Of a stretch of 64,000 nt of DNA, positions 5,301 to 64,000 are shown piece after piece. Location of the stretch: assembly GCA_023213395.1 (NCBI GenBank), contig CM041465.1, positions 233,561,741 to 233,625,740 of the forward strand, read 5' to 3'. The first letter of the stretch is position 1. Each line of letters opens with the position of its first letter. This DNA comes from Cycas panzhihuaensis. Lineage: Eukaryota; Plantae; Cycadophyta. The notes beneath the pieces were generated by a model, which saw nothing but the letters and a program-made list of their open reading frames with translations, searched no databases and was not told the DNA's origin. The position numbers and the translations under genes are program-made.

Positions 5301-6959
5301 GTAATCTATATTTGCGTCCTTTCTGACAGAAACACATGAATTAGGTCATATAGTTGGTAACTATATTACCCAAGGTCTGTAACCATTGAATTCCCAAGAT
5401 TGCGTCTACTCCTCCTATAGGCATTGCAAACATACATGTACTTACTGAATAGTTTCCAATTTGGAGATTCACCTTCTGACAATAGCCTCCACAGGGAGTG
5501 GTTTTCCTGTTTGCTATGGATACTTGAAAAGTATTCAAAGATTGTATTTTTAATCCTAACTTCTTTGCTAAGACCCTGTTGATAAAGTTGTACGTGTTGC
5601 CACTATCTACAAGTATGGCAACTGGAGCTCCTTTGATCATCCCTTGGAACCTAAGGGTTTGGGGTGTAACACTTTGTCCCATTATGGCTTGTAATGATAT
5701 TTGAACATTCTCAATATCGACTTCTAAAAGTTCATCTACGTCTGCTTCCTCTTCTTGGGCCTGATTTACTTCCTCCTGCTCTTCGTTTGGTATTTCTGCT
5801 TCGTCATTATTGATCATGAACACCTTCTTTGCGAGACATTGGTGTTCTTTATTCCACTTTTCTCCACATTTAAAACAGGTCCCCTTTTTGAGATGTTCAA
5901 CTTTGCTTGTTTCGTTTCTGTCTTTTATTACTACTAGTGGGTTTACTTTTGTGCCTGATCTAGTCTAATTTGGATTGGATTCCTATTGCTAGTATGATTC
6001 GGTTTTGCGCAAGTAGATAGACCTATGCTCTTTGAATTTTGCTCCTATGTTCTTCATATACTGGATTGCCTCATGAATATTTGAGGGGTTCATATTCTTA
6101 ATGCGAAATCTGATTGTTCCCTTTAATCCACTGATTGATGTCTTCAGAATGTATTCTGTTGGTATTCGTTCTAGTATTAGACATTGGAGCATCTGGAATT
6201 GCTCGGTGTATTCTTAAACTATTATGTTTTGTTGTAATCTTGTTAACTGAGCGAAATAGTCAGTGTTCCATGAATCTTCATATTGTTTTATTAATCCTGC
6301 TTTCAGATAGTCCCCTGATTCTGGATGGCCTAAATTGTTCTTTTGCCACCAATAAAACCACTCTAATACCCTTCCATACAAATGTAGAGATGTTATTGAT
6401 ATCTTTTCCTTATCTGATAGTTCATATACTTGGAAGTATGTTTCCTTTTGCAGTAACCAACTTCGGATGTTCCTCGATCTTTCTGGATCAAATTTTTCTA
6501 GTGTAAATTTGGTTCCCCTAAGACTCTAATCTGATTCAAAACTCCTCTAATTCTGCTGTTCATAGGTAAAACCCCTAAATCTTCTTAAGTTCTTTTATTG
6601 TTCGTTCCCCTGGCTATCTTGATCTAGGGATTCTTTGTTGAATTCTTCCATGTCTTGATGTTTCTCTGCTGATGACTCTCCTTCTTGTAGATCTAGCGTC
6701 TTATTTAAAGTTTCGAACGAAACCTGGATGCTTTTCATTGAAGTGATAAGTTCCGATGGTAAGTGAGATCATACTTCTTCTATCATGCTTCCTTCTACTT
6801 TTGTTATTGTTGTTTGCCAGTTCACCATCTTGTTTGAGACGAGGCTTTTCCCTAACCTTAGTTCCGTCCCTAGCAGAAGGGGGGGGGGCAGGAATTTGGT
6901 CAAATTTTTTTTCAATTTATCTTCGGATTCCTGCTTCAAAACGAAGCTTTGATAGCACT

Positions 6960-7158
6960 TGAAGTGACTAACTTCCTCTATCACTCGCTGACTTCCAAAA
7001 TCGTCTATGAAAAATCCGCTGAAAAGTTAATAATGGTAACAAAAGTACAAAAAATAGTAATTACACTAGTCAAAATGGATAAGGGATGTAATTCACAAGG
7101 CTAGCTAATATTGCTTGGAATACACTTGTTTCACCCAATACCGTGCTTGAGATGGCCA
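6960..7158 (-). repeat. Truncated 5' LTR of the chromoviral gypsy
   Basis: TGAAGTGACT...GATGGCCA homologous to 1873-2071, 2 nt from the PBS. Confidence 0.75.
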
Positions 7159-7829
7159 TGTGGCTGTAATATCGTGTTTGGTGGTAGCCTTTAGTTAGGT
7201 ATTTGGTGTTGCAATGTGGTTGCATGACATGCTTTTGTCTATCGTGCCTTGCTTATTGCCTTTCTAGAGTTAATGGTTCAAATCATCAGACGTCTTTGCA
7301 TATGTCATCCCGAAGGTTGCTTATGTAAGGCATCTTTGGCCTTAACATTGCCCCTAATTTGTAGCCTTTCAAATTCCTCCATATATTGGCTTGGAAACAA
7401 TGAGCTAATTGTACGTGGTATCAATCATGCCACTTGTCTTCTATTTGTTCCTTTAAGGCATCGAAGGGGTCATTGAAGTATGTAGCTATCTAATGTTCTT
7501 GTTTCCCAAAAGGTATAATGGTCTTTTAATGTATTCTATGGCAAGGCCTAATCAAGCCTTGATATCTATGATATTGAGGATTTTGAACGTATTATTAAGT
7601 TTTGCTATCCATTCATCAACGTCTATCTCAACATGTAGGGACCACTTGTGACGAACCCAAAACTAAAATGGAAAGAAAATATTTGAATTACAATAGAAAA
7701 TTATAAAAAGAATATTCTTGGCCCTAAGGTTGCGTAAAAGAATAAATTTTAAATCGAAATAAACTCATGATGATAAAGCCTAATGGAAAAGTCTTTATAT
7801 ATTGGCTTGCTTATATTATTTTAATCTTA

Positions 7830-8260
7830 TTTAATACCATTTGAAGTCAGTGTTTTCTTAGATTGCAAAAATGCAATAAATGCCTTGCAAATCCAAAAAG
7901 AAATTTTGAACTTTGTTAATAGGGTCAATCTAATATTTGGAGATGTGTATACATTGGTGGATAGGAACAAAATAGATTCTGTCTCGTGGTGGATGATTAA
8001 TTGTGCAAGGGTTGAGATGATGCAATTGCTCATTTGCATTGGTGGCAAGATTCTCTTTAGTAGGGAGGAATTGATGCATACATGACTTTGTTGCCTCTAT
8101 AAAGAGAAGCATGTTTAGATCAAGTAAGACTAAGGATTGGTGTTTATACATTCCAACCTTCATCTTCTCTCTTGCGGGAAAGGGGATTGCACAAAGGAGG
8201 GGACTTCATAGTTTTGGGATGTTGATCTCAAAAGCACAAACTTGAAATCTAGTCATTTTT
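7830..8260 (+). pseudogene. hAT transposase C-terminal dimerisation-domain remnant
   Basis: DSVSWW..., GRN*CIHDFVASIKRS, VFIHSNLHLLS across frameshifts. Confidence 0.65.
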
Positions 8261-8999
8261 GTGTTTTTGATTCTTTTCACTTGCCATACATCACGCTTTC
8301 TGGGAGAAGGATCTTTAATAGATATTGCATTATTCCATCAAAATCATTATCTTGAAGATCTTAATGATTTTTTTGATAAATAATTATATATTTTAAGTAC
8401 ATTATAACTTTGTAATCGAATTTTGATGTCATTGTGTAATAGCAATGTCCCAATTATGTAAATGCATGTCTAATTTTTGTTTCAATTTTGTATTTTTTAT
8501 TTTTAAATGCATAGGTTAATATCTTAATATGTTTTCTTTTTTATGTGCACGCTCGTGCGCCCACCCACCCACCCACATTTGATGTTTCCACTTCTTTGGG
8601 AATTTTTGGAAATTGGCTTTTTAGCATTTCCTTGTTTCCATTTCCACATTTTTATTTTTCTTGATCCTTCCCCAATCTTTTAGTTTCCAGGCTCTTATGC
8701 ATCCCCTTTAACGTTTTTCTCATCTCATCCATGTTTCTCCTTTGCTCTTCTAGGGTTTTGGTTGTTTTCTCTTGCCAAGTCTTAGTAGCCTATAAATATT
8801 ATTGACTTTGAAACACTACAACATACTTGACATTTGTAACCTACAAAATCAAGGCCACTAAACAACAATATGTTAGTGTTAGCTCATTTGCATACAAGTG
8901 TATGCAATTTTATTTTGAGAAACATGATGGTTTGTTTAATTAAGTGATTCTTGACATTGCAAGACAACTTACCGTTATTACTTGACCCATGGTTTACAC

Positions 9000-10000
9000 A
9001 CATATTGCCCTTTGTTTTGCAAGTTGGAATGCTTGGTCCTCTTCCACATTAGATTCCATCCTATGCAATATCCTTGTACTACAAGGTAGCACCCTATGAG
9101 GCTAATGTGGAAGAGATGCCAATGACACTTTTATACATTTAGGCTAGTTTACCAACTAAGATGCCACACGTTGTCCCTTTGTAAAATCACCCTTGGTGGA
9201 TTGTATGCTAGCAAACAACCCTTGCTCATACAAGCATACATAAACATTGTTATAGCACATGCCTTGCCTAGCCTACTATCAAGACAATCAATGACGTAGA
9301 TATAAACATCTAAGATACAAATTGAAGTTCTCTACATTATGACATAAACAATAAATTAACAAGGCAAGAGGTGTAAGCTACTTGACCATGAAGATGGAGA
9401 TATTAGTTATATGGTATGGACACCACCATAGGGAATTTTCATATACATAGCTCCGAGCTTTGATACCAAATGAAGGATTTATGGGAGTCAGAGGGAGCGG
9501 CAAATGCAACAAAGGGCAAAACAAATATCCAACATGATGGCGGTGTTGATAAACACCAGGGTCTTCAGACACCTTGAATTTATAGATGGGAGTTGAGTGG
9601 TAGCCCAATGTCTACTGTCGACTGGTGTTTAGAAACACTATTATAATATCCACTCGAATATTGATGAGGTCAGCTAAGTCAGCTGCACCAAACCTTATGT
9701 TGTTATAGCTAACTTGTGTTGATATGAGCCATAATGGGCATTATCCAACAATTGCTAGGATTAATTACCACCCTTTTGTGTTAGTATTCTACCCCATGCA
9801 ATGTCCCAGTCCACTAGGTAGCATCCCCATTCTTGCTTATGTGAAAGTGTTGTGAAGACCTCCTTTCTGGACACTCCATTTTATCCATTGGTCTTCCCTA
9901 GGTTTGATCCTTTTATCATGCCAACTCAAACCATTTATGGTGCCAATGCCTTTCTCTGATGGACCCCATTAGGCAAGGTGCAAAGCTCATGGATGCTAGG
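9000..10000 (-). mobile_element. Highly decayed retrotransposon pol fragments (possible)
   Basis: Only weak protease-like and G-patch-like fragments; no continuous ORF. Confidence 0.25.
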
Positions 10001-21641: not shown

Positions 21642-22786
21642 CTAAATGTGCTCTTCCAAATAATTAATAACAATTTTGGTTTTGCCATTATCGTTTTTTA
21701 TTGGTATATCTTGAAATGTTGCTATAAGTTCGAGGATCCATTTGTCTATGTCGATTGTGTCCTTTATGGTGAATGTGGGATGATGAGTTATTCATTGTAC
21801 TGAACATCTGTGTTGGTAGCATTTTTAGGACCATTATTGCTATCAAGTGAGGATTCAGACTTAGTTTCTATAAGAATGGATAGTTTGTTGTCAATTTGTT
21901 TCATCCATTCCTTAATGAAATTGAGGGCGAGAACTGATGTTTTTGGTGGAGTCATCCTTGGTAGCCATTTTGGATTTTTTTCTTGTATTTGATTGTGGTG
22001 GGTTTTTGGCTCTTGAGGGAAGTTGTAGTATCACATAGATTTTTTTGTTGCTTTTGTAGACTTTGCAAAGAAATTCCAGAAGGTCAAAAAATTAAGTAAA
22101 GCACCTTTTCATTAATTTAGCACCAAAAACATATGATCATTGGATAAAATCAAGAAGGGTAGACTTCAAATGATTATCCAATGTAGTTTGATTAAAATTA
22201 AACTTTAGAAATAAAGCATTTTGAAATAACAAACCATTGTTTTGAGTATGCAGTTCATTGCCACCACATTTGAGATTGTCTACTTACAACAAAGGGTAGA
22301 AAAGGCCGAGAGATCCTTATGGAAGGATTTGGATAATGTCAGAGGGCTCACGGAATGATTCTAGGAGCCAAGAAAATTGCATAATGCTTCAAAACAAAAA
22401 ATTAACAACTGTTGTTCCAATGTTTTTTAGCTACTGTGGAGAAACTAAGTTGAGCATGTTCTTGAGACAACTACAATGAGACCTGGAGGCTAATGGGCAA
22501 ACCCACAAGAAAAGAAAGGCCAAACATTGACTTGTAATTAAGCCCATGATCTTGTAGAGTTGCTACCAACAATTTAGATGCTATGTTCAGATTTCGAATG
22601 CAGTTATTGCAAATTTCATGTGTTGAGGGATCTGAACACTATGGCTTGGTGAAGGAGCATTCAATGAATGCTACAATTGGATTGTGCCAAATCCGATACC
22701 ACTTATAATGGACCAATGTTCCACTACTTGATAATCGATTATTCATAACGATTTTCATAAATAAATTGCCAAATGCAAGAAATTGA

Positions 22787-23093
22787 TGTGGAAACAATGA
22801 TCGAGAAAACTTTGAATAGGAAAATTAATTTCTTCTTGCACGAAGAGATTTGTATTGAAAAATGATTCTTCAATATATCCATACAAGGGATTCAGAGGAT
22901 ATTTATGCTAGTATGCTCGACAACTCTTCATGGTTCACTACTTTTCATGTTCATGATGGTTCAAATCCTAGTTCTATATTATCATTAAGTAGTCAAACTA
23001 ACTAATGATAGTTATTAATATGAGTTGTGGGACCCACAACAAATTCATTAACACTTCATATCTTAGTCCTTAATTCTTGTTGTATACACAACA
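22787..23093. mobile_element. Possible solo LTR (~307 bp)
   Basis: TGTGG...CAACA termini and LTR-like composition; no TSD found. Confidence 0.3.
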
Positions 23094-23094
23094 T

Positions 23095-23917
23095 TGTTGA
23101 CTTAAGGATTCCACACCCTTGTGGGATCAATACACTTGTCAAGGTTACACAGCGCTATAGTCTAGTTCAGGATATTGTCAACATGGTTATTCACATACAT
23201 TCCACATCTATTTCACATATATTTCACAGAATGATACACAGCAGTACAGAAATCAATACATACTCAGCAAATCATCATCACAACACCAAGAATACACCAT
23301 TTTCCACGTAACTCTTCCTTTTATTAAGTAATCAAGTCAATTTACGGAGGTGGAATGCATACATGCATTCCAAAGACATATCCTTCTGTTACATATGCGT
23401 ACCTAGATGGTACTTATCATACGATGATGCTCCAAATGGTCATCATACATCGCCTCCTGCACCTTTGCGTACCCGTGATAATCGGCTCTCACCCTAACTT
23501 GGTGAATCATGCGTACCTCCTTAAGTACTCATGTTGGTACCTTTTGGCTGAAGGGTTATAACTGCCTGTCATAACCGTACCCCTTCAGTCATGCACCCTT
23601 TCACTAATCACTTGTTTAGGCACTTGATTAATCATCCTTTGTGTTCGTATGTCCGTACGTACGTCTGGCACCTCAACAGGTCTTCACTGGTCCCTTTGAG
23701 TCATGCGTACCGCTTCTGCTCGGTTCCGTTTCGCCGTTGGTACGTATCTGTCATATGTACCCGTTCTAGGTACGTACCTGTCATACGTACCCAGAATGCT
23801 GATTTTTCTGCTATTCTGCCTCGTGCATACCTCCGTACGGTCTGTACCTGCACAACTCAGGTTATCTGACCTACCTCTGGTCCTCACACAGCCATTGGAT
23901 CACTTTTGACTCCAACA
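23095..23917 (-). repeat. 3' LTR of gypsy (823 bp, CGTAC-rich)
   Basis: TGTTGAC...TCCAACA, homologous to 37414-38225. Confidence 0.95.
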
Positions 23918-24002
23918 TCTATCCCGGGTCAACAGTTATGGGTTTGAGCATCCTTGCTCAGCAAAACTCAAAAATTTCGGGGTATCCCTCCCCCACTCTG
24001 TC

Positions 24003-25087
24003 TCAAGGTGGCTCCTGCTGCCTCTGTCCTCCCAAAATTTCCTCATTTATTTGTGTCAGGGTGGCAATAATGGCATTCTCCTCCTTTATTTTGTCCTGAA
24101 GGGCAGTTATCTTAGCTTTGTACCCTTCCTCCATTTCCTGAATCATTTGGATGATAGGTCCCGCTTTATCCTGTGGTGTAGGAGGTGCTGAAGGTTCCCC
24201 TGCCTCCGTTGCTGGTGGGAAGTCTTCCCATTCTTCCCAGGATGCTTCTGCTTCCTCTTCCTCCTCTTCCTCCTCTTCTTCTCCCTTCTTTCCTTTTCCT
24301 CGTCTACGGGCAACCTGTTTTGTCCGAAGGGGAAAGGATGTTCTTGGCGTCTTCTGTAGCCAGGTAAGTACCTTTTGCATTTGTTTTTGTACTTCCTCTT
24401 CGCTTCTAGACTAGTCACTGTGTCTGGGAATTCTGCTGCCCACTATTTGATAATTGGCTCCCGAGGAGAGATAGTAGTCCTGGTCAGGTGTACTTCTGGA
24501 CATTGGTAGAATAGAATCGCCAAAAGTAATGAAGGATGGCGGAATGGATGTGTCCTAATCTCCTGTAGCTGTTGCCTCATGTTTTCTGCCAAGAACTCTG
24601 ACTAATTCATTTTTTCTCCATCCCGAATCTTCAACAATACCGGCATCATGCCTCCCTGAATGTAGGTGTACTTTCTCTTGGACAGAAATCTGGAATTGAT
24701 CACTTTGGCCACCCACTGAACTCTGGCATCCATAATGTCTGCTACCCTGATTCCGCCGGACATAATCTGAGTGTTGGGTTGGCATAATTCCCTCAGCCAC
24801 ATTTCCCGGTCCACTTCTGACCTCTTTGTTCCTAGTGGAACCTCTCCCTCCTTGGGAAGTCTAGTAATGGTATGGACTATGTCTGCGTCCATTTTGGCCT
24901 TCCTGCTATCCTCCTTCAGGGCCATTAGGATTTGGTCCATCAGTTCGGGGTCATAGTACATGGGGTTACAGTAAATGTAGTCTCCCCAGCCTGCCTGCTT
25001 AACCTTGGCCTGAAATGGAGCTGGTAGGGCTTGTAGGTCTTGCTTTAGCTTCGGTATGTAGGCCTCCTGGCACCTTGTTGTCCTCAT
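24003..25087 (-). pseudogene. Extra ORF downstream of integrase, PMD / plant-transposon-protein-like (~360 aa; 2 stops, 1 frameshift)
   Basis: MRTTRCQ...KQAGWGDYI...IVHTITRLPKEG...KMN*SEFLAENM...IIK*W then a frameshift into RRRGKGKK, poly-E and a coiled-coil-like tail; both TAG stops are one transition from TGG/CAG; family call from motif resemblance only. Confidence 0.6.
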
Positions 25088-25242
25088 GATGGCTGTGGAG
25101 TCCCAGAGATAAGAAAGAAACCTAAGCGTACAATTGGAACCGCATGTACGTACCTCTGAAGAACGCTTGCCGTTACCGGCTTGCGCATCTTGTGATGCGT
25201 ACCGGAGCAATCTCTTGCGTACCGTTTTTCGGAGTCTGTTCC

Positions 25243-25412
25243 GCTCTGCGTACCGCACGAGAATGCTCGCAGGTACATAATGATTTATTGTTTTGCGGAT
25301 TTTTGTCTTATACGTGCCCTTGGTACGTATAGTGTTAATAGCTTCCATTATACGTACTCGATTGCGTACTTCCTTTGGTACGTATAATGTAACTAATCGC
25401 TTCAGTATCTTT
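25243..25412. repeat. Hairpin-repeat array, left part (split by nested insertion)
   Basis: TATACGTGCC-CTT-GGTACGTATA (25309-25331); CATTATACGTAC...GTACGTATAATG (25346-25389). Confidence 0.8.
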
Positions 25413-28400
25413 TGTTAAGAATTTAACATGGAGGATGCTTAACAAGATCAATAATATCAACAGAGATCAACACAATATAATCAGAATGTATTACCATAGC
25501 AAAAGCACCAAAGACTCAATATGAGCCTTGATGATGTGATGTGTTTACATACTACCTCAACCACCTTTATATACCAAAGAGGTGGGAGACTATACATCCC
25601 AAGTAGTGCATGTGGGACAAATACCTTTGTCCTGACTAATAGCATTATACCACAAACTTGACCAATAAACTTATATCCTTTTACATAGTATTATAATGAG
25701 CTTTTGACCCTAAGACTTAGGACCATTACTTATTATCCTAGGATGCACATACATTAAACATTATTTCCAACACCTCCCCTTAATGTTTAATGTGTGAACA
25801 AATGACAATTTGACATATATTGACACTTGACATGAATTTGAGACTATAGACATTAAAGACAACATGACAAGACTGACATGACTATCAATGGACTCTAATG
25901 TACTTTATCTTCTTTGAATCTCCACCGTCTTGATCTTGGAAAGATCTTGAACACCATGTCTTAGGCATGGTCTTGGTCTTCAACCTTGTAGTGTCCTTTG
26001 AATTGATGATCCTCGGACTTTGCCTCTTTCAACTTCACACATAATTGAGAATCCAAGTAGTGAAACATGGATAATTCAGAATGATCCTGCATGTATTCAT
26101 CAAAGATATCTTCAAGGTGTCTTTCAAGCATGTCTTCTATCACCTGTTTCCTTCTCCCTGCTTCAGTATGTGAGTGACCAAAGTAGACATTAGCAATGTC
26201 ATCATTATCCAAGTGCAGCAATGAGTTGTCAACTGTTAAGACACCGTTATCCTCCCCTGAATCAATGGGCTTATTGGGACGAGTTCCTGCAAGTTGTGTG
26301 ATACACCCTGTTTTCTTTGTGTCACTCAAGAAGTTCCATGAACTAAGTACAATGAGAATCTCCATGATACTCACATGCATATACTTCCTGATTATAGATA
26401 TGCACACATGGAACATTATTTCAATCTAATTGACTTTCATAGTCAGATAACCTATCCAAAAAGTGATATGAATCCGATAAGCAAGAACCTGATGACATGA
26501 TATCCTCCTTATGTTCCTTTGAAAACAACTTTCTAGTGCCTTGTAGGATATGTCGTTATAATTTTGATCTCCTCAAAGATGAGAGTGGAGAATGTAACTG
26601 AGTTGAGGGAGATCATGGATATTTTCCAATACATGCCAATCACTGTATGACCTGTCACCATTTGAATTCTTCCTATCAACTTTTCAACACAAACTAGGAT
26701 AACATTATCCATACCTTTTGTTAGCTCATGTCTCCACGAACTATTATCTAAGGATTGATGCACGAAATTTTCAGCCTCAGTGGTTCCTTGATGAGACTTA
26801 TGGCTTTGTCACCGCTTTTCCTTTTTTTCTTCTTCAACTTCTTCCTCGATTCTTTGACCTTTTGATTCTCTCACTTGTATTTCTTGGTCCTTTTCATTCA
26901 CTTACAAGAGTTTCCAAGCATCCTCGGTAGAGTCCATATTCGTAGAACCCGAATAATAAAGTGATAGGAGGTAGGGAGGTTATCCTTATCAATGGTCGCA
27001 AGTATTACTTCAATAACAATTGCATTTTTCTTTTGAAGATTTCCTCCCATCTTCGTGAGCCATTTCAGTCCCTATGACAGTTTTCCAAAGTTTCTTCACT
27101 ACAAATAGACTTTCCATCCTAATTTTCCAAAAACGAAAATTAGTTCCAGTGTATTTGGGCAGAGGAAAGATGAGATCGATAACCAATATTCATTTATCTC
27201 AGGCACAAAAGTGATAATGTCACTTAACTCCATGATGTGCGAAGAAGTCAATCACAGCTGTAGTTCAAGTACCTCCTCAATTAACAACAACTTGTTCATT
27301 CATTTGTTTTCTACCATCAGATTATGACACAGATGTGCCCTAAATTCTTCAAGGTAAATGGCTTCAGTTAACTGGACAAGCATACCATGCAGGATTCAGT
27401 CATTACCTTGAGAAGGATGTTGCTTCAGTTGGGTGTCGCAGTCTTCCTTCAAGAAACTTCTGACAAACAGTGCTCAGATTTGGTCCCACGTCTCTCTTCT
27501 CACATACAGTTTGGTATTACGAATCATAATCTGCCTTCAGTTCATAATTTTGGTACAAATTTCACCTACTATGTTCTCTTTTTCAGCCATTTAGCTCATA
27601 GCCTGAAACCTTCAAAAGTTCATACACTAATTTTCTGGTTCACCAAAAAAAACCAGCTGCACTGTCGTCCAATTCTTAAGGCCTCCTCCCCACCAACAAT
27701 GCTCTTCAGTTTACACTATGGTTTTAGTTGTCTGGATGAGGAATGGATCCACGTTTACCTGTCCCATAAGAGTTTGAGACCAGTCGCTGGAATCCTGGCA
27801 ACTTCTACAGCACAAATTAACTTCCTAAAGAAGCGGACAGATCATAACCACGAACAGCCAGCCTGGAAAGCCTCTAGTATTCCTTCTTCACCAACTGCTC
27901 CAACAACGACTGGATCCTGTGCGCAGGTTCTTCAACCTAGAGTTACAATTTTTACATTATCCCAATACTCGACGTCAGTTCTCATCTACGTGGTATCTCC
28001 GTCTTACGATAACTTTGAATCGGATCTTCTATTCCTTTTAATCGATTGCGATGGCTACAGTATGTATACTCAGTCTCGATTTGCAGCCATAATGCTTAAC
28101 TGTAGAATTTTCATAGAGACTGTTTGCATGAAGAGTTTTCAACAGGAAGGATTCTTTGTTTGTACTTTCACTTGAGCTATAGAATTTCGAGCATAAAAAA
28201 AATGCAAAATTCTATCCCAAAAGGAACATCTTAAATATGTGTATTGAGGAGAACAGATATTCAGCCTTTATTACAGACTCAGAACACTATGATTAGAACA
28301 TCTTCTTCTCATGAAGTGACCCGCGACATGTATGCTCACCTTCACGACCAAAGTGGCATCTGGTGCTCTGAATGATCTGCCAGCACCTTCTCCTCACAGG

Positions 28401-30036
28401 TGAAAGCAACCTTTTCTGAAGTTGCAGTTATTATTTCTCTTGTTGAATCTTAATATGTATGGCGAAGGGCCTATGAAACACAGACCGTACAGACCCTGTA
28501 CATTCTTTGTGCGGATACTCCACTCCCAACACGGAAAGCCATTCTCGATCTACACAGAAGCTTTACTCGCATTACATTCAGTTTAAAAGCATTCGGGCAA
28601 ATCACTTCACCTCATACCATGGCGAGACAGTCGGACAAATAGCACAAACAACGGATCACGATCTACCATTCTTTCCAATCAAGACACACTCCAATACATC
28701 CTCGGAAAATACAAAAACCAAAAGGTCATGCCGCACTATTTCAGAGAGCACTATTTCACGCCCCGGATCGTCCGGTAGCCGGAACACCAGATCAGGCGGG
28801 AAAACCTTCTCCCATATTCCAGATTGGAGATATATAATTTGGTGCTAATCTCAAATCAAACTGTACGTTGGCAGCCTCAATGCTATCCTTGAACATGTCA
28901 TGTTGCCAAATGGCACCCTTGGTCTGGTTGAAGGACTTGCATAAGTCGTTTATTTCAGACAAAGTGGGTTTCATCTAACGGTTAACAGTCTGCATAGCAA
29001 AATTCTTACTTGCAAGGTAAAAATCCCAAGAAATTATTGCATGCACACGGAATATAAGGCCACGACACCGACCACCACCGACCACTGTACCAGAGACATT
29101 AATCGCTTAGGAAGCTCGATTTACCACGGCTCCCTTCCAAGCCAATCCTCCTGAAAATCTATCCACTTGACACCAAGAAAAAGGGTTGAACAAAAGCAAA
29201 CATTGCAAAATAATACTTCTCCAAAGCAGATCTCAAAACCAGTGTTCCTCAACAGTACCCAGAACCTGGTTTCAAATCTGTCTGGCCCTGGCTGGACTGG
29301 CATTCGCATAATAGGGTTTATGCAGAATCATGATATGAGGAGTGACAAGTGTTTTCTAGTTAACAAATAGCGAGCAGACTGCCTTTAGAACCAACAGGAA
29401 TTTAGGCCAGCATCGTATGCATCGAGTCGTCTCTTTGAACTCACCTCCTATCTCAATATCGCACAGATGATACTCACCTTTTGTACTGAGTTCGATCTTC
29501 ATATCTACTGTGGAGCTGACTCATCATCACAACCACTCAATTCTCCTCTGCCTAGCAGTGAAGCAACAAAACTAGCTGCAACCTTCCAGACATGCGGAAA
29601 AAAAGGCCTCAGCACAAGGTAATCATAACAGCCCTTCAATTTAGGAAGTCACTGTGTATCCCCTGCTCTGATACCATGTTAAGAATTTAACATGGAGGAT
29701 ACTTAACAAGATCAATAATATCAACAGAGATCAACACAATATAATCAGAATGTATTACCATAGCAAAAGCACCAAAGACTCAATATGAGCCTTGATGATG
29801 TGATGTGTTTACATACTACCTCAACCACCTTTCTATACCAAAGAGGTGGGAGACTATACATCCCAAGTAGTGCATGTGGGACAAATACCTTTGTCCTGAC
29901 TAATAGCATTATACCACAAACTTGACCAATAAACTTATATCCTTTTACATAGTATTATAATGACCTTTTGACCCTAAGACTTAGGACCATTACTTATTAT
30001 CCTAGGATGCACATACATTAAACATTATTTCTAACA
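25413..30036 (-). mobile_element. Non-autonomous copia-derived LTR element nested in the gypsy
   Basis: 360-bp LTRs 25413-25772 and 29677-30036 differing at ~4 sites, perfect TSD TCTTT, PBS TGGTATCAGAGC (29665-29676), PPT AGGGGAGG (25773-25780); interior has a Gag N-terminal relic (KYTGTNFRFWKIRMESLF...LWKTVIG, ~27070-27160) and no RT. Confidence 0.93.
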
Positions 30037-30040
30037 TCTT

Positions 30041-30358
30041 TTACACAGTGTGTACCCGACTACGTACTTTTTTTGCTACGTATAATGTAATCTTTTAACT
30101 TACTCCCCTTTGCACTGTGTGTACCTGATTGCGTACTTTTCAGGTATGTATAATGTAATTGAGCCACTTAAAAGTTATTTACACTGTGCGTACCTACCCG
30201 CGTACTTTTCAGGTACGTATAGTGTAATCCCGAGTCACTTTTTGAACTGTGCGTACTTCAATGTCTTCCCTTGGTACATATAGTGTATTTTTAAATTTTT
30301 ATCACTTTTTCAACTTGTACATACCTGGTAACATACCTTTTTGGTACGTATACTGTAT
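30041..30358. repeat. Hairpin-repeat array with variable spacers, right part (5 units, ~62-69 bp period)
   Basis: Consensus TTACACTGTGCGTACCTGATTGCGTACTTTTCAGGTACGTATARTGTAA near 30041, 30110, 30179, 30242 and 30311. Confidence 0.9.
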
Positions 30359-30589
30359 TTTGCTTGTATGTCGTTGAATTTACCTCTGATTTTTTCAGAT
30401 TATGCTGTTGTTACTTATATCAGTAATGAGTTACGGTTATTTTTTATTTTTTCCAAATTTCTTTTCTTTTTGTATCCATACTGAACTGGATCATGGCTCG
30501 GTATCAAGGCAGTTGATTGTGCCTCAACATCATGCAATACAATATGGTACAACCAGCTGATCCTGCTGGTAGGCTGGGCTACTCGATAT

Positions 30590-33420
30590 AAGGCTTGAGT
30601 CTGCTACCATTTACCCGAGTTGGTAGCAGAGGTCCGTCGATCTCTCGTCGCCGATCCATTCTCAAAAATTAGATTACTGCGATGTATGGTCCCAACCATT
30701 GCATCTTGAGTTTTCGAGTGCGTTTTGAATTTCTTTGTCATTACAACAACACTTGATCACCTTCGTTGAATTGAGGTTTCCGTAGATGGCGGTCGTGCTA
30801 TGCTTTTTGTCACCGCTTTTCCACATGTTGCAACCAGTTTGCTAAGTGTCGTTTTTCTTCCAGCCACACTAAGTCTTCCAGTCGTCGTTCCAAAGACTGG
30901 AGGTCATCTAATCGACATTGTATCGCCACTCGTAGGCTGGGTATCTCGAACTCTGTCGAAAGAATGGCTTCCGTGCCATAAACAAGCTGGAATGGAGTCT
31001 GTCTGATTGACCTTTTGTATGTCGGACGAAATGCCCATAGCACGGATGGTAACTTCTCGGCCCAATCAAATCTGCCGATGTCGCAAATCTTTCGCAAGCA
31101 ATTCTCGATTATCTTATTTGAGCTCTCTGCTTGACCATTGGCTCTCGGGTAGTATGGAGTTGATTTTTGATGGCTAATCATAAAGGCGGATGTCAACATT
31201 TCAATAGTTTGATTAAGGAAGTGGGCGCCTTGGTCACTTACGATCTCCAATGGGCATCCAAATCCCGTAATCACTACCTCATATAGAAATCTTGCTATAT
31301 TTTCTGCATCGGCTTTTCGTAATGCGCGCGCTTCCACCCATTTTGTCGTATAGTCGGTTGCTACCAGGATGTATCGAGCTTTTGATCTACGTGCCGCTAG
31401 TTTGATTGGCCCCACAAAGTCGAGCCCCCATCTCTCGAACGGTGCCAAAGGTAATATGGGATGTAACGGTTGGAAATCCTGTCGATTAGGTTTCCCCACC
31501 CGTTGGCAATAATCACATGCTTGAATCCACTTTTTGACATCTTCGAACATAGATGGCCACTAGAATCCTGACGTCAAGATCTTTCGCCATGTGGCCAATT
31601 TCCCCATGTGGCCACCTGCTACTCCATGTGCCTGCGACATGATCTGGTTTATCTCATGCTGTCGAACACAACGTCATAATACGTCGTCTGGCCCCAATTT
31701 GTACAACTCTCCACTGATAAGTTGATACGGCTCTGCTTTTCTGATGAAATTTCTCTTCCCCGTACGATCTAACTCTGCTGGTACTTCCGGTCGCTAGATA
31801 TTCTGGTATTCCCTCATACCAGTCTATTGGAACTGCTTCCACACTGAACAAAGTTGCATCTGGAAAGTCATCTGGTACCCCCGTGGCTTTTTCTCCATTT
31901 CTGATTCTCGACAACTGATCTGGAATGATATGGGCTTTGCCAGGTTTCACAATGACTTTGAAAGAAAATTCTTGAAACAACATCAACCATCTGCTGATTC
32001 TCCCTCGCATAATCGGTTTATTCACCAAATACATCAGTGCTTGGTGGTCAACGAAAAACAAGAATGGATTTGATAACAAATAGTGTCGAAACTTTTGTAA
32101 TGCATAGACCATGCCGAGTGCTTCCCTCTCTGTCATTGTATAATTTTGCTTAGCTCTCGTAAGTTTCCGACTGGCGAAGCAGATTGGATGATCCATTTTA
32201 TCGTCACTGGGTTGTGCCAATACGCTTCCAATAGCGTATTGCGACGCATCCACATGCACGTGAAAAGTTTTTTTCCAATCTGGGAACCGCAGTATAGGCG
32301 CTGCTACAATGACTTGTTTCAATGTTTTGAATGCTCGTTGCTGATCTTCTGTCCATGTCCACTCAATATTCTTTTTCAACAACTCTTCCAAGGCTCCAGA
32401 TATGTATGCATACCCTCTGATAAACTTTCTATAATATCCCGTCAAACCCAGAAAACCTTTCAGTTGTTTTCTCGTAATTGGTGTCGGAAAGTGCAAAATG
32501 GCAGACACTTTTCTTTGGATCTCGACAATCCTTCTTTGCTGACTATATGCCCTAGTAGGTTCCCAAAGGGTACCAGAAATGTATACTTTTATGGATTGAG
32601 ACACAATTTGTTTTCTCGGCACGTTTGCAACATCTCCCTCAAATTTTTCATATGATTCTTCATTAATCCATACAACGTCCAATCGTCTAGGAATACAGCA
32701 ACCTTTTCTCCAATAAACTTTCGAAAGATATTAATCACAATCCGCTGGAATGTAGCTGGTGCATTCGTAAGACCGAATGGCATCACTTTGTAGGCATACG
32801 TTCCCCGTTCTGTTACGAATGTAGTTTTTGCCTGATCTTCTAGGGCAATCTGCACTTGATTGTACCCACTTAATCCATCTGTGAAGGAATAGATCTCATT
32901 TCCCCCAACCGCTTCCAAAATATCCTCTGTAAAAGGTAACGGGAATGGATCCTTCTTTGTCACCTTATTCAACTGTCTGTAATCCATACAGACGCAAATT
33001 TTCCCATTTTTCTTGGGAACCACTACTACAGGGCTCACCCGATCAGTAGTCAATCTAAATAGATATAACCCGCTTCCAACATTTTGTCAAGTTCCGCTTT
33101 CACTTTCTCTTTGTATTTCAGATTCATCCGGTATGCCCGTTGTTTCACCGGTTTTGCGTCTTCCACTAGATCGATATGATGCATTCCTATCTCCGGAGGA
33201 ATGCCTTTCAGGTCTTTATACGACCATGCGAATACGTCACGGAATTCTTCGAATAACTGCTGGGCTTCTGCCACCGTTTGAGGATCCCAATAGTTTCCAA
33301 TTCGAATGAACTTAGGATTTTCTGAACTACCAACATTAATCTCTATAGTTTTCAACTTTGTTATACCCACATCTTCTACATTTCCGGTTTTGTGTCCCGG
33401 AGTGTCTTCTAGCTTTCTTT
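30590..33420 (-). pseudogene. Gypsy pol: RT - RNase H - integrase
   Basis: FRDVFAWSYKDL, VCMDYRQLN, MPFGLTNAPATFQ, FLDD, FHVHVDASQYAIG, ERWGLDFVGP, IVSDQGAHF, YYPRANGQAE, C-terminal WLGPY...NGSRLKPY; several frameshifts. Confidence 0.95.
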
Positions 33421-33459
33421 CTCCAACATTGAATTCTGTAAACTCTGCAGGATAATTCA

Positions 33460-34440
33460 TAACCTCTTCTTCTTCACTATGTGTAGACTCTACCTCTTCT
33501 TGATCTGCTAGGTGTTGTTCTAATTTTATACTCATTACCCTAATATGTTTAAGGATTTTGTCTATTTCTTTGTTATCCGAAGTATGCCTAAAGGTTTTTA
33601 TGAAGGATTTCTTTAGGTTTCCCCAAGTTATATCTAAGTTTTGTTCCTTCCCTAGGAACCAGTCCTTCGCTACTCTCCCCAAGGTGTGGTAGAAATAGTT
33701 AGGCCAATTCAGTTTAGGTATACTTAAGGATCTCCATTTTTGTTTACAATTCTGTATATGTTTCCTAGGATTGTGACCTACATAGAATACTGGGATGGTT
33801 AGTTGGGTTGGATGATCGAATCGTATTCAAAACATCGTTTGTAATTCTTGCCAACTCTTAAGAGTGGCTTGGTGGGATAGGTACCAATACCAAGCTCTTC
33901 CCCGTAAGGTTAGGACTAAGTCCTGCTGCCATTGGGTTTTATCCCAATTCCCATGATCCATCCAATACTCAACACAATGCGTTAAATGGGTAGTCCCATA
34001 TAACTGCTCCCCATAGGAAGGTTTCACATAGTTCCCAATATAGATGTGATGGTTTATTTCCTCTGGGATAATGACTTTACTATCTAGACCATAATCGCTA
34101 GAAGTACTTACCAGCAATCCTCCTTCCATTTCCCCAGTTTTGGCGCCAATGGTTGGAAGAGATCTGTGGCTGGGTGGGTGTACCTCTAAGGAAGAGGAAG
34201 AAGGAATATTACTTCCTTCCTCAGGTTGTAATAAGGGGTAGGGAATCTACCTCAGGACCCACGCCTGAAGTAGATGGGATGTCAGGATTACTATTAACTA
34301 CAAAAAAACTACGAAAATTATTAGGTAAACTATGGGTTGGTTGGTCTAGGTTGTTATCAATTTTTAAATTATCGTTAGTTAGCATATACTCAAAAGAATC
34401 TGAATTATTATCAATGTTTGTAGATACACTTTTAGATAGC
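33460..34440 (-). other. Extra polyprotein segment with two Gag-capsid-like modules between protease and RT
   Basis: LTLRGRAWYWYL...SWQELQTMF and HTLGRVAKDWFL...TWGNLKKSF; 33050-34129 is one frame with RT apart from a single TGA. Confidence 0.7.
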
Positions 34441-37278
34441 AAATTACATCTATAGGAAGAAGAGTTTACTTCATACGCATCCTGAAGCCAGTAATCCACG
34501 AACCTCATACCGTGTTCGTCGTCAGACGAGTTGTATATCTCTCTGAAATCTGTTGGTTCTTCTTGCTGGTGATTCTTTGATGTGGTGGGCTCTTCTGCCG
34601 TATGGTAGATATGTTCTTCCCCAATGGAAGAGAATGTTGTGTCGCTTGCTACCGTTGTGTTGGATCCTTCATCTGGAATCATTTCAATCGTGCATCTTCC
34701 CAGCATTGGCAATACCACTTTGTTGCCGCTGTCAGATAGAGTGAAGGTTACGTTTTTCCAATTCTGAAGGCATTGCGTTTTATACAACCATGGCCTTCCC
34801 AACAGTGCTGGATAGGGTGTTGCTCCTTTCTCTGTTTCCACAATCGTGAAGTCGATTCGCACCACTATCCTTGCTACATCCACTTTGATGTTGGCTAGTC
34901 TGCCCATAGGTCGTACCAATAGTTCATTCGCCAATTTCAGTGAATAGGTCGCCGCCTCCAGCTTCGGGCTTCCCAATCTACGCCATGTTGTAGTTGGTAA
35001 CACGTTCACTGCTGTGCCTCCATCAACAATTACCCGTGGGAATGTTTCCCCCAAGACTGACATGGTTACCATCGGATCCATATCGAATGATGGTATGATT
35101 TGCTTCAAACTCTTAGTAATTCCCCTCTGTAACACTCCTCCTTTGATCCAATCAATAACTTGGGACAGAGGAATAGTTAACTGAAGCTGTTTTACCAAAT
35201 TTTCCATCAATAGCAACATTCTGGGGATATCCTCTACTGGTAATCCTTTAAAAAGCTCTTCCATTTGCACCATTTGGGGTTTCGCCTTAGGTTCTTCCGG
35301 TAAATTTTCTTGTTCCTTTTGTTTATTTTTTCGTACATAGACGTATTTCGTTTCCGGTTTACCCATTGGTAATACATTCTCCTCCCAGACTAGGCCATCT
35401 AACACTTGTTTCGCTTTTCTATATCGATCCATTTGTGTCGGTGGATCTGGATATCCTTCATTCAATTTCTCTTTTTGTTTATTTTGTAACTTGACATTTT
35501 TCGTCTCCGGTATGATCGTCATCAAGTTGGTTGCTTTAGCTTTCCCTTTGCAATCCTTTGTTTTGTGGTCACTCGGGCCACGATTCTGCTCTGACGGCTT
35601 CTGTTCGTATTCTTGTTTTGTTGGGCATTCTGACTTCCAGTGCCCAAACTGTAGACAGATGAGGCATCTTCCCATTGGCGGTTTCTTCCTCGAGGGTTCT
35701 GGTGCGACCCTTGTTGTATACACATTCCGAGGTGGGTTGCCTCCCCTTCCCCGACCTCGTCCTCTGAATGCTTTTCCCCTGGGATTGTAGAAACAATCCT
35801 TAGTAGTATGTGTGTCAACATCACATATATGACACCATCTTTCTTGTTGGTGCAACGCACTGTTTTTTAAATTTAAATCACATTCCCTGGTGGTATGTGA
35901 ATCCTCTTCGCAAATGTGGCACCACTTGGTTACTCTTCCGGTGTGCTCTTTCTTTTTTTGTGTTTCCTCTTCTTCACGGTTATTCCTAATTTTCAATCTG
36001 ACCACCTCTTTTCTTAATGCCTCCAACTCCGATTCCTCTTCTGCTACCCCCACAGCGGAAGGTCGGTTATCTTGGTTTTGCTTCAGTTCTCTAATCTCGT
36101 CCTGTAACCTCAGCAGCAAGGAGTCTTGTCCTCCCGCTTGTGCGTCCATTTCCATTTCAAAATCTAAGGCTAGATTTTGAGCATTCTTGAATGATTTCAG
36201 TGGATGAGCATGCATCATGGCTCGTAACTTCTCATTCAACCCTCTTACAAAGTAATTTTTCATATTATGATCTGTTATTGTCTCATTGATCATACTAGCC
36301 GCAATAATTTTCATTCTGCTAATGTAAGTTAAGACAGATTCTCCCGGCCTTTGTTTGATTTCTCTTAACGCAATCTCCACTGCTTCATTACTGCGAAATT
36401 TCTGAAATCTCTCTTCGAATGCTTTCTTAAGTTTCACCCATGGCGCATTCTTATTTGTTTCCTTATACCACGCCAAGGGTACTCCTCTCAATGTCTGAGA
36501 ATCGTGCTTTAATTTCGTCTTAAATACGTAATTCTTTTACATCAATAAGATTTTGAAATAGATACACATGCTCGCATTGCGTCAAGTATCATTAAAAATC
36601 GGTTCCCAAAGTCTCTATAGTCATCCATTTTGGGAGATTGTAATCGCCCCCACCTGATGGTGATTTTTCCTTTCTTCCCTCCTTCGGGGATGCACTGGAA
36701 GTGACTACCGCTGTAGTATCCTTCCCAAACAGCGGATTCTTGAATGGAGTTTTGATATGTATTGGTTCCACTACGCCTGGAACTTGTATTGTCAATGGTG
36801 TTACCGTAATATAAGATTGATCAGATCCCCTTTCTGTCGAATCTTCGAAAAGCTGTCTCGTTATCTTATTCTCCCAATATGCCGAGGGACCTTCGTTCGC
36901 CTTCTTGTCGCTGTCACCTGGGTCCTTCGGGCTGTCCTCCACTGGTATACTTCCCTCTGTTAAGATCTCTTGATGTTTTTCATCCACTTTTGGTTTGCCT
37001 TCAATCTCCGGGCTAAACAAATCATCTCTGATTGGGGCTGGTGTCAATACCATGCGTTCGCCATGAGTTTCCTCCTCCTGAGGTGTCTGGGCTCCACTTG
37101 CCTCAGATCCTTCAACGGACTGTCCCTTAGTCTCGTTGTTTTGCCAACTTAACCTCCTCCCCCTTCTGAGTTTTGATTCTTTTGACCATCTTAGTGCCCT
37201 TTGTCTACTGGTCTCCTTTTCCTTGGGTGAAGTATCCTTCTGGGGCTCCTCCGACCTTAAAGGCCTCTTAGGTGGCAT
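34221..37278 (-). pseudogene. Gypsy gag - protease
   Basis: ORFs 36592-37278 and 34221-36491: LRGVPLAWY...WVKLKKAFEERF, QRPGESV, three CX2CX4HX4C knuckles, protease IVDGGTAVNVL...LLGRPWL. Confidence 0.93.
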
Positions 37279-37399
37279 TGGAAGGTCCCCTGGCTGCCGG
37301 TGGCTTAGTTACAGCCCGCCATCACGGCCTGTGGTCCTCTACCCTTTACACATACTTTTCTTTAAAACCCCTAAGCCCTGTCCCTCCTCAACGGACGTA

Positions 37400-37412
37400 G
37401 GCAACGGAACCA
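37400..37412 (-). promoter_or_regulatory. Primer-binding site complementary to tRNA-Glu
   Basis: - strand TGGTTCCGTTGCC, 1 nt from the LTR; complements the plant cytosolic tRNA-Glu 3' end GGCAACGGAACCA (recalled sequence). Confidence 0.8.
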
Positions 37413-37413
37413 A

Positions 37414-38225
37414 TGTTGACTTAAGGATTCCACACCCTTGTGGGATCAATACACTTGTCAAGGTTACACAGCGCTATAGTCTAGTTCAGGATACTGTCAA
37501 CATGGTTATTCACATACATTCCACATCTATTTCACAGAATGATACACAACAGTACAGAAATCAATACATACTCAGCAAATCATCATCACAACACCAAGAA
37601 TACACCATTTTCCACGTAACTCTTCTTTTTATTAAGTAATCAAGTCAATTTACATAGAGGCTGGAATGCATTCCTGTGCATTCCAAAGAGCATACTGATC
37701 CTTCATTACATATGCGTACCGGATGGTACTTATCATACGGTGATGCTCCAAATGGGTCATCATCGTCATCTCCTGCACCTTTGCGTACTCGTGATAATTG
37801 GCTCTCACCCTAACTTGGTGAATCATGCGTACCTCCTTAAGTACTCATGTTGGTACCTTTTGGCTAAAGGGTTATGACTGCCTGTCATTACCGTACCCCT
37901 TCAGTCATGCGTACCCTTTCACTAATCACTTGTTTAGGCACTTAATTAATCATCTTCTGTGTCCGTACATCCGTACGTACGTCCGGCACCTCAACAGGTC
38001 TTCACTGGTCCCTTTGAGTCATGCGTGCACGCCGCTTTGGTTCCGTTACGCGTTGGTACGTATCATCATACGTGCCGTTCCGGTGCACGCACTGCCATCG
38101 TGCCTGCATGCTGATTTTTACGCGTTACGCCTCGTGCGTACCTCCGTGCGATGCACTGCACAACTCAGGTTATCTGACCTACCTCTGGTCCTCACACAGC
38201 CATTGGATCACTTTTGACTCCAACA
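37414..38225 (-). repeat. 5' LTR of gypsy (812 bp)
   Basis: TGTTGAC...CCAACA followed by TSD AACAT. Confidence 0.95.
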
Positions 38226-38928
38226 AACATATGGATATTTTGTGGCCATGCTCAAAGTTTAATACATAAATAAAAGTCTTTTATAGAATGAATGATTTGG
38301 ATAGATTTGAAAGGTACTCACCTCTTGATAACATATTTATTTGATCATAAAGTTCACTTGGGCTCAATGAATATTAGTGGCTAACTTTGTGGCTTCAACT
38401 TGTCCCTCATGGCACTTCTAGCCTTGTGGCTTCACTGCTTCCTATTTCTTTTGCCTCCATACAACCTTCTCTTCCTCCATTTGTCAAGAATCAAAAGAAT
38501 CCCCCTCTTCTAATTCATGTGTGCTTTTATAGTAAAAGGATCCACCTCCATCCAGACTATGTGAGAAAATTCCACATCAATGCTTGTGTACCATATCCTT
38601 ATCCCACCTATAGTTAGATAATTGAACTCTCAAGTAGTCTTTGAGAAGATTCTTTCTTAATAATTGTGCAACCTTAACACCATAACTCTGAGCCTTCATA
38701 TAGAGATTTTAACCTTGAAATTTGACTTTGAATCCTAAGCTTGAGGCATTTACCTTAGCAAATTAACTTCTAGGTTAATTTATTGATTAATTATACAGCT
38801 AAATTTTGTCCTGTAACATAAGCTATAATTGCTAAAGCCAACCTTGCCTCTCTAGTAACTACTTAAAAAGCCTTCCTAAATAGTAGGAGCCCATCTTTCT
38901 AGGGCAAAAATCTCTTAAAAATAATTTA

Positions 38929-39165
38929 TTAGCCCCCTCCATGGGACCACTAGATTAACCCCCCTAGATTCTCATCCATTGAGGGTATATTTCATTGCCA
39001 TTGGGTTGTCACCTAGTCATCTACATAGAAATATTCACTACACTTAATGATGCAACTTGTTATACATGTGTTCCTTTATTAGTTACAGTAACTCCATTTG
39101 ATACCAATGGAGTTTTCTTTAACATGGTTGGTGGATGGTCATCAAATTCTCTTAGGTTTCACTTC
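38929..39165. repeat. Direct repeat, copy A (homologous to 42282-42518)
   Basis: TTAGCCCCCTCCATGGGA...GGTGGATGGTCATCA alignable over ~240 bp. Confidence 0.85.
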
Positions 39166-62600: not shown

Positions 62601-64000
62601 TCTTCCTGGGAGAAGGGTTCTGTCAATTTGCTGTTAAGAGCCTTAGAGACCACTTTCGAGATGTATTGCAAAAGAGCCGCTCTTAGATCATGGTCCTGAC
62701 AACCTAGTTCTGTATATAACTCCTTGAAGTAATTCATCACGATTCCACCGATCTGGTCCTCCGCCTCATGCGTTGCCCCGTCCCTGCTTCGAAGTTTACT
62801 GATCCTGTTATGAGCTCTGTGCTTCAAGGTGGAGAGGTAGAAGAACTTAGTATTTCTATCCCCCTCCCGTATCCACAGCTCTCTGGATTTCTGCTTCCAG
62901 AAAATTTCCTCCCTTGCCAGCACCTCCTCTAATTTCCTGGAGTTGGAATGTTCGAATTGGTCCAAATCCTGGGTTCTTCCTTCGAGCTGGATCCTATCCT
63001 CTATCTCTTTTAACTTTGACAACAGGGCCCCCTTGTTTTTAAAAATGTTTCCAAAGATCTCCCTATTCCAGATCTTGATTTGTTGCTTAATCCAATTCAA
63101 CTTCTTCGAGAACCTGAACATGGTGCAACCCTGAACCAGAACTCCCCACCAATCGTCGATCCTCCCCCTAAGGTCCGGGTGCTTCAGCCACATGAATTCG
63201 AAACGGAAGGGCGCCCCCTTATGGAGACCGGGAACGAACCCCTCAAGAACAAGAGGAGAGTGATCTGATCCAGATTTCGGGAGAGCCTCCAATTTGATGC
63301 CTTCAAAGTGACAAGCCCATTCATAGTTTGTTAACATCCTATCCAATCTACACTGTATGTGATTATGGCCTAGCTGCCTGTTGGACCATGTATACCTAGC
63401 TCCCCTGAGGGGAACGTCCATCAGGCCTCCCATCTGCAAGAATTCACCAAGATCAGACATACTCCTCGTCCAACTAACTTGCCCCCTTTTCTTCTCTTCC
63501 GGGCTAAGGGGAGAATTAAAGTCCCCCGCCACCAGCCATGGGCCTTCCCAGTCTTTATGGACCTGCACCGGTCTTTCCCATAATCTCTTCCTGCCCTCCA
63601 TAGAGGTGGGGGCGTAAATATTTATGATCCAATACTCTTTGTTAGTCCTAACACAGACCAGTCCTACGGTTAAAAAGTGATCATTCTTTCTCACCTCGTA
63701 ACCCCTCCATCTATTCATGTTCCAAAGGGAGGCCAGCCCCCAGAGCCTACTGACCCTACACTAGTCCTCCCTTCTCCCCTTCTCCAGATCTTGTTAATCA
63801 CCTCTCTTTCTTTAGTCTGTTCCAACTTTGTCTCCTGCAAAAGGATAAGACCCGCTCCTGTCCTAATCCTTAAATCTTTCACCAATCTCTGCTTGGATGG
63901 GGCATTTAGCCCCCTAATGTTCCAGGATAATACCTTCATGGATATCCTGGAACTACAACCCTCAACCCTTCCTACTCTTGAGGTTAGGGCCTTCTAGCGC
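59613..64000 (-). mobile_element. L1-clade LINE: ORF2 (APE endonuclease - RT - zf-RVT - RNase H), 3' UTR and poly(A); runs off the window
   Basis: MKVLSWNIRGLN (63939), GDFN, SDHSP, KAPGPDGF, FRPISLCN, GLRQGDP, QFVDD, RCVLC...ESLDH, NFDGATKGNPG, IEGDS, REGNSAADWLA; 3' end TTTACCTTATC-A7 at 59613-59630; frameshifts present. Confidence 0.97.

Follow-up and report, generated by a model that had tools for sequence, protein, structure and literature searches.

The window analysed here is a 64,000-nucleotide stretch of the Cycas panzhihuaensis genome (GCA_023213395.1, contig CM041465.1, positions 233,561,741 to 233,625,740). It contains, on the minus strand, a Ty3/gypsy long terminal repeat (LTR) retrotransposon with an array of palindromic repeats between its integrase and an extra open reading frame (ORF). 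The array and both LTRs are filled with one short motif, TRCGTAC(C), and probably represent a cluster of DNA sites. The extra ORF is predicted to encode a protein with the fold of VANC21, an anti-silencing protein of the Arabidopsis VANDAL transposons. In the best reading, the element carries a module that resembles VANC and is anti-silencing or self-activating, and its own extra-ORF protein would bind the TRCGTAC(C) sites. This reading, which leans on a structural model and on analogy, is given a probability of about 0.55.

The array is present in two halves on either side of a nested insert, a left half at 25239-25392 (units UL1 to UL3) and a right half at 30040-30358 (units U1 to U5). The initial annotation had described about seven or eight imperfect palindromes here, and eight units could be bounded by eye and then aligned. 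These are UL1 (about 25239-25287, degenerate), UL2 (about 25305-25337, short), UL3 (25343-25392), U1 (30040-30090), U2 (30110-30158), U3 (30179-30227), U4 (30242-30288), and U5 (30310-30358). The 17-bp stem reported for unit U3 was found to consist of 15 Watson-Crick and two G.U pairs, and the recurrent loop (G)CGTACTT was seen in U1, U2, U3, and UL3. Each unit contains two TRCGTAC sites as an inverted pair, their cores separated by 21-24 bp, and frequently one more site halfway between them (steps of 11-12 bp). When oriented, the sites of the array and the LTRs read TRCGTAC(C/T); the rule used to orient them is biased towards this motif, and the site matrix is thus not independent. An asymmetry between TGTGCG in the left arm and CGTATA in the right arm does exist in some units, but it does not hold as a general rule, as the left arms of UL2 and UL3 are TATACGT. 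Tandem Repeats Finder, run at a score of 30, did not report the array.

The spacers between the units are T-rich, 12-24 nt long, and share no 12-mers with the rest of the window, the stretch that was compared for a CRISPR-like reading with spacers taken from other DNA. They had been described as dissimilar, and the similarity among the seven spacers indeed does not exceed that of shuffled sequences (p 0.6), so that a first impression of homology among them was rejected. Their length is conserved, with left cores every 63-69 bp. The number of units varies from copy to copy. Contigs of other copies contain joints from 25335 to 30322 and from 30361 to 30322, which correspond to fewer or more units. 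Hairpin patterns gave no matches in viral contigs and none in metagenome contigs.

The motif is restricted to the non-coding parts of the element. Per kb, GTAC cores number 34-35 in the two halves of the array, 32 between the array and the extra ORF, and 17-22 in the LTRs; gag-pol has 1.8, and the flanks and the insert have 1.6-2.4. Past the array, five unpaired GTAC cores are found at 25128-25219, in the interval before the start of the extra ORF (25128-25222). The 3' LTR (23095-23917, minus strand) has 18 cores, 17 of them within 23399-23847, and the 5' LTR (37414-38225, minus strand) has 14, with 13 within 37716-38141. Motif copies in the LTRs are mostly unpaired and direct. A triplet in the 3' LTR (23513/23525/23537, 12 + 12 bp) has its sites in the order of an array unit, with the long stem absent. 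The 8-mer TACGTACC was selected as the most enriched in the integrase-to-ORF region alone, with one mismatch allowed, and was then counted after the ORF. It matches 19 times between integrase and ORF. The post-ORF/LTR region of the same element has 13 matches, a number that none of 200 shuffles reached (their mean was 0.85). This motif is specific to the family, and the matching region of 13 related elements holds zero or one match each.

The family is abundant, and the motif occurs across it and in several organisms. Parts of the stretch were found in 20 listed sequencing runs from 12 studies, and between 2,369 and 3,683 contigs per run align to 491 bp of the array in each of four runs. At five positions where this copy departs from the motif, the motif base makes up 66-99% of the aligned contig depth in all four runs, a biased sample in that contigs below 80% identity were excluded and units cross-map. 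The ratio of observed to expected CpG is 1.06-1.76 in the array and gap and 0.76-0.88 in the LTRs, compared with 0.28 in the flanks. The two LTRs differ most in their U3 tract (23700-23850 in the 3' LTR, 38018-38160 in the 5' LTR), where about one quarter of the positions are unlike and seven of the eight GTAC cores of the 3' LTR are GTGC or GCAC in the 5' LTR. Within 23695-23894, 42 substitutions were counted, whereas several other parts of the LTRs have 0-3 in every 100 bp. Possibly, this tract, with its concerted change of motif, was converted from a sister subfamily that has the altered form; C-to-T decay in the opposite direction is an alternative.

The extra ORF (24003-25087, minus strand) is in sense with gag-pol and has about 360 codons, with its end at about 24003. 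It contains two stops and a frame change, and was translated with X at the stops, the first of which is absent from most family contigs. Its N-terminal part of about 245 residues is predicted to be VANC21-like, and its tail is acidic and resembles a coiled coil. Sixteen relatives were found at E<=0.001 among 1.84 billion representatives, and a word-indexed search with the first 161 residues among longer proteins gave no match. An AlphaFold model built from a 15-row alignment has a predicted local distance difference test (pLDDT) of 87.9 and a predicted template modelling score (pTM) of 0.86. When this model was searched, independently of Foldseek, against 48,161 PDB representatives, the sole chain with a Z of at least 5 was 9lnk, DNA-bound VANC21 (Z 9.4, next 3.4), with 224 of 246 residues aligned at an rmsd (root-mean-square deviation) of 4.2 and 10% identity. 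Foldseek gave a TM-score of 0.52 for 9lnj, VANC21 with its target DNA, and at most 0.17 for the other matches listed. The extra ORF of a related locus, L051, has an open frame and is homologous by profile (probability 97), and its model also has 9lnk as first match (Z 7.8, rmsd 4.8, 197 residues aligned; next 2.5). Both alignments begin at VANC21 residue 295. The predicted fold of the extra ORF is that of VANC21, and the gap to the next match, the full coverage, and the repetition in L051 suggest that the likeness of the models reflects a real relation.

Related elements were collected by integrase alignment, which gave 80 loci from metagenome contigs (40-59% identity), 36 of them with at least 1.2 kb downstream. 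Many of these relatives possess the same order of integrase, motif array, sense extra ORF, and LTR. Motifs without GTAC, GCTGAAAC, TTTCCGCAGCC, GGAACAGC, and AGGGACCTGT, are found at the same places. On inspection by eye, L051 shows seven units of 44 bp, each palindromic, after the integrase and six direct copies of GCTGAAAC in its LTR, and L043 and L048 have TTTCCGCAGCC repeats in both array and LTR. Motif sharing was counted in a matrix of 8-mers with one mismatch for the window and 13 loci, with region limits set by hand; this replaced a matrix of exact 6- and 7-mers over 17 loci, which was too strict. L008, L013, and L017, which have very short upstream regions with almost no spacer before the extra ORF, were left out, as was L077, a duplicate of L078. 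Sharing between an element's array region and its own LTR was clear in L051 (6 versus 0.88 in shuffles) and L033 (2 versus 0.22), and the LTR flanks of L004, L053, and L067 were too short for this count.

Some relatives carry arrays or leaders of particular form. L067 has 18 copies of a near-perfect palindromic 39-bp unit at 7171-7886, L010 has such units of 34-37 bp at 8198-8496, and L026 has two adjacent 33-bp palindromes at 9905-9977. In L053, the extra ORF is preceded by TATATAAA and a leader rich in pyrimidines, with a cluster of ACGGAAC/ACGCGT (2570-2855) immediately 5' of these, and this is the clearest internal-promoter-like layout among the relatives. In the window, a candidate TATA-like word, TATAAG, is located at 25307-25312 (minus strand), some 225 bp upstream of the ATG of the extra ORF. 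Such words were found 3' of the arrays, within a few hundred bases, in five of the eight relatives tested, and not in L043 or L033. They are too common to count as evidence.

VANC21 and VANC6 are described as binding motifs of 8-9 bases that accumulate as tandem repeats, and their cognate elements lose methylation (PMC5735166). By analogy, the array would be a tandem-amplified cluster of TRCGTAC(C), the motif common to both LTRs, and the extra-ORF protein with its VANC21-like fold would bind to array and LTR alike. The bound sites would keep the LTR promoter free of silencing, possibly through a loss of methylation, and the array would likewise keep a putative internal promoter of the extra ORF open. 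The protein could then sustain its own gene as well as the genomic RNA in a positive feedback. The hairpins would be a by-product of head-to-head sites, and the spacers would only hold distance. The initial annotation had proposed, among other options, a multivalent protein-binding platform directly 5' of the extra ORF. That idea is supported in the form of a DNA-site cluster, as the arm motif fills the LTRs and the ORF fold is predicted to resemble a sequence-specific DNA-binding anti-silencing protein.

There are a number of points that weigh against this proposal. A shared fold shows no function. The Foldseek E value for VANC21 is 3.8 and not significant, the identity is 10%, and Z scores below about 13 may, by the tool's own caution, reflect a common arrangement in helical proteins. 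When the PDB was searched by sequence profile with the extra ORF, VANC21 was not retrieved. DUF1985 gave no match at E<=1 in the extra ORF and 11 homologues, the Pfam PMD domains gave none in the extra ORF, and the one Pfam signal there is a sub-threshold Transposase_32 (E 0.013), which was also seen in the extra ORFs of five of 18 relatives. Motif sharing with the own LTR is borderline in L044, L050, and L043 (3-6% of shuffles), and in the 8-mer matrix there is none in L026, L031, L048, L071, and L078. A few off-diagonal cells of this matrix also reach 2%. Nine of the 13 relatives form one clade in the integrase tree (made up of unnamed loci and three named fern and conifer proteins), so the independent cases are few. 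For the LTRs, a helical-phase spacing of 10-13 bp did not reach significance (p 0.07-0.09). Retention of CpG gives no clean signal, the observed/expected ratio being 0.72 in gag-pol versus 0.29 in the extra ORF. Finally, GTAC is also the core bound by host SPL factors.

The main rival explanation starts from this last point. The motif cluster could be an enhancer for host SBP-box (SPL) factors that the LTR shares with an internal promoter of the extra ORF; the extra-ORF protein would then do another job. SPL factors bind a GTAC core, with class B of Arabidopsis preferring GTACGG and maize ZmSBP8/30 preferring GTACGTRC according to 10.1101/2024.09.13.612952. GTACGTAC is present at 23655, 23770, 37973-37977, and 25146, and a host SPL factor would fit all of the DNA-level evidence equally. 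However, the site flanks are mostly GGTACG(C/T)A and not GTACGG, the motifs of the relatives named above do not contain GTAC, and GTAC has become GTGC in the LTR tract. Since the motif differs between families, each would need its own host factor. The adjoining VANC-like fold would also be unexplained. This explanation is considered unlikely, though it is the closest competitor of the proposed VANC-like module.

Somewhat less probable again is a neutral origin, in which the array would be a stretch of 3' untranslated region that expanded in tandem, as happens in Tat/Ogre/Retand elements, with its palindromy and its likeness to the LTR derived from an old LTR copy and template switching. Family-specific tandem arrays are described as common between pol and the 3' LTR (PMC11963269, PMC6317226). 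The variation in unit number and the nearly spacerless L008, L013, and L017 are in line with this as well. On the other hand, the motif cores were kept while spacers of fixed length diverged to chance similarity, the CpG of the motif was retained in a genome with an observed/expected ratio of 0.28, and unrelated motifs recur at the same two places in other families.

The array could also act as RNA, either as hairpins that feed small RNAs or as a packaging or translation element, as the initial annotation had suggested. Both halves fold better than 100 dinucleotide shuffles, and the plus strand does so more strongly (z of -5.2 on the plus and -3.0 on the minus strand for the right half, and of -3.6 and -2.7 for the left half). 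On the plus strand, G.U pairs outnumber A.C pairs by 14 to 6 in six well-registered units (U1 excluded), and contigs of three presumed-RNA runs cover the array region. However, the strand that folds better is antisense to the genomic RNA, and these runs are unstranded and cover the entire element, which indicates presence only. Among the eight units, 78% of the cells are paired, but the covariation score of 0.122 was reached by 379 of 500 shuffles, and two pairs had changed on both sides against 2.6 expected; this is a test of low power on paralogous units within this copy. Rfam gave no match at E<=1 in 22000-39000. Ten of the G.U cells fall in two alignment columns, in which UL3 has A and Watson-Crick pairing. 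Such columns can be inherited because tandem duplication of one ancestral unit copies them, and in LTR sites that lack a partner arm this position is likewise G or A. The four CpG losses in the stems of this copy are divided 2:2 between the strands. Among the relatives, the arrays of L051, L067, and L010 fold equally on both strands, and no folding is seen in those of L043, L048, and L078 (z -1.4 to +0.4). A role as structured RNA is therefore not supported, given the lack of covariation and of an Rfam match, the concentration of G.U in two columns, and the behaviour of the relatives' arrays, and it is the least probable of the three.

The proposed VANC-like module shares features with several known systems. 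As in VANC/VANDAL (PMC5735166, PDB 9lnj/9lnk), the element encodes an additional protein, predicted to fold in the same way, and a short motif is piled up in tandem in non-coding regions, is absent from coding regions, and differs between related families. In contrast, the carrier is a Ty3/gypsy retrotransposon and not a VANDAL (MuDR) DNA transposon, the sites are in inverted pairs, DUF1985 is absent at the sequence level, and binding and demethylation are here suggested by analogy. Sirevirus elements (Ty1/copia) have palindromic motifs, rich in CpG and specific to each family, that cluster in the LTR and 5' of an env-like ORF; elements without this ORF lack the internal copies, and an internal promoter was suggested (PMC2829016). 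They differ from the gypsy element in being copia and in having CGG-CCG in place of a CGTAC core, and the available text of that paper names no binding protein. The layout seen here belongs to neither VANC/VANDAL nor the Sirevirus motifs, but probably works like the VANC system.

Athila, Retand, and Ogre elements, with their Transposase_32, Transposase_28, and PMD ORFs (PMC6317226, PMC11963269, PMC11728184), are similar in having an extra ORF 3' of pol, a weak Transposase_32 match, and an array in the interval between pol and LTR. No archaeal RNase H turned up in the broken ORFs scanned here. The array motif is not tied to the LTR in the available parts of that literature, which leave the function of ORF and array open, and the extra ORF is antisense in Retand and sense here. 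The PMD-C proteins MAIN, MAIL1, and MAIL2 (10.1101/2024.09.27.615353) have a fold akin to the DUF1985 of VANC and oppose silencing at short motifs, one of them palindromic. Unlike the extra ORF, which has no Pfam PMD match, they are host genes that oppose Polycomb, and direct DNA binding is described as not yet shown for them. Published work has linked VANC structurally to MAIN and PMD proteins and has recorded PMD-A domains in retrotransposons (PMC13547354, 10.1101/2024.09.27.615353), so a VANC-like fold in the extra ORF is not wholly unexpected.

In work of 2025-2026, the function of the extra ORFs and 3' tandem arrays of plant LTR retrotransposons is called unknown (PMC11963269, PMC12844716), and whether such ORFs modulate methylation is left for future study (PMC12844716). 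Unpublished VANC-DNA structures are mentioned in PMC12859917, and transposase-derived regulators of DNA transposons are the topic of 10.64898/2026.08.24.746577. A VANC-fold retrotransposon ORF joined to cognate arrays was not found in the literature consulted, which was mostly the main texts of non-subscription papers and did not extend to the VANC21 structure paper. Arrays, extra ORFs, and the Sirevirus layout are known.

More tentatively, and at somewhat less than even odds, the Transposase_32-type env-like ORFs of non-chromovirus Ty3/gypsy elements across land plants could be VANC-fold DNA-binding proteins, with the 3' arrays and LTR clusters as their co-evolving targets. If so, VANC would belong, as a single branch, to an anti-silencing system that is much older and is carried by retrotransposons, and the very high copy numbers of such elements in giant methylated genomes could be explained. 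Retrotransposons would also have VANC-type anti-silencing, which in the available literature has so far been shown for DNA transposons only. Each family would then be a natural pair of protein and motif that could be useful for targeted epigenome editing. The finding provides candidates for both the protein and the motif, along with sister families whose motifs are different.

The outer element is identified as Ty3/gypsy by its TG..CA LTR ends, target-site duplication, primer-binding site, and the order of gag, protease, reverse transcriptase, RNase H, and integrase. The duplication AACAT is found at 38226-38230 and 23090-23094, and 751 of 842 alignment columns of the LTR pair are identical. 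A TGG-initiated primer-binding site is present at 37400-37412 (minus strand), which we take to resemble tRNA-Glu. Read 5' to 3' on the minus strand, gag-pol is followed by the array, the sense extra ORF, and the 3' LTR. The decayed gag-pol (30580-37308, minus strand, 3' end approximate) has several stops and frameshifts and encodes capsid, zinc knuckle, protease, an extra capsid-like stretch, reverse transcriptase, RNase H, and integrase. The extra stretch, between protease and reverse transcriptase at 33050-33826 (minus strand), has weak Ty3_capsid/Retrotrans_gag matches and is well covered by family contigs; weak matches to it are also present in L067, L068, and L080. In L010, an aspartyl-protease domain follows the integrase in the same frame (5816-7375). 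For the Athila clade (non-chromovirus OTA), which is marked by a sense extra ORF 3' of pol and by the lack of an archaeal RNase H and of a chromodomain, the scan covered the larger pieces of the broken ORFs and gave no Pfam match to either domain. The closest named integrases are from a fern (55-56% identity) and a conifer (50%), in keeping with a non-flowering land plant, and none was confirmed in viral contigs. At 23918-23995, a purine tract abutting the 3' LTR is absent, and a G-rich run is located about 60 bp upstream of this LTR on the minus strand.

The 4.6-kb insert that splits the array is a non-autonomous copia-type element (25413-30036, minus strand) with 363-bp LTRs that are identical at 358 positions (five differences) and with TCTTT as target-site duplication on both sides. 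Its primer-binding site is presumably of the tRNA-Met type. Contigs of other copies skip the insert, with joints from 25406 to 30036 (runs X17 and X7), 25392 to 30036 (X7), and 25387 to 30037 (X16). The LTR identity, the duplication, and these joints agree with the split that had been described from the sequence. The insert is younger than its host element and lies outside the module of array and ORF. The Pfam match within it is a DUF4219 gag remnant only. Deep contigs from presumed-RNA runs match 27593-27761 and 28449-28811 and then continue into unlike sequence; these two segments are possibly captured host-gene exons. The window as a whole is plant DNA rich in transposable elements with a GC content of about 36%. 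It also contains, at 60298-63760 (minus strand), a long interspersed nuclear element (LINE) with an endonuclease, a reverse transcriptase (778-codon open stretch), and a zinc-binding domain.

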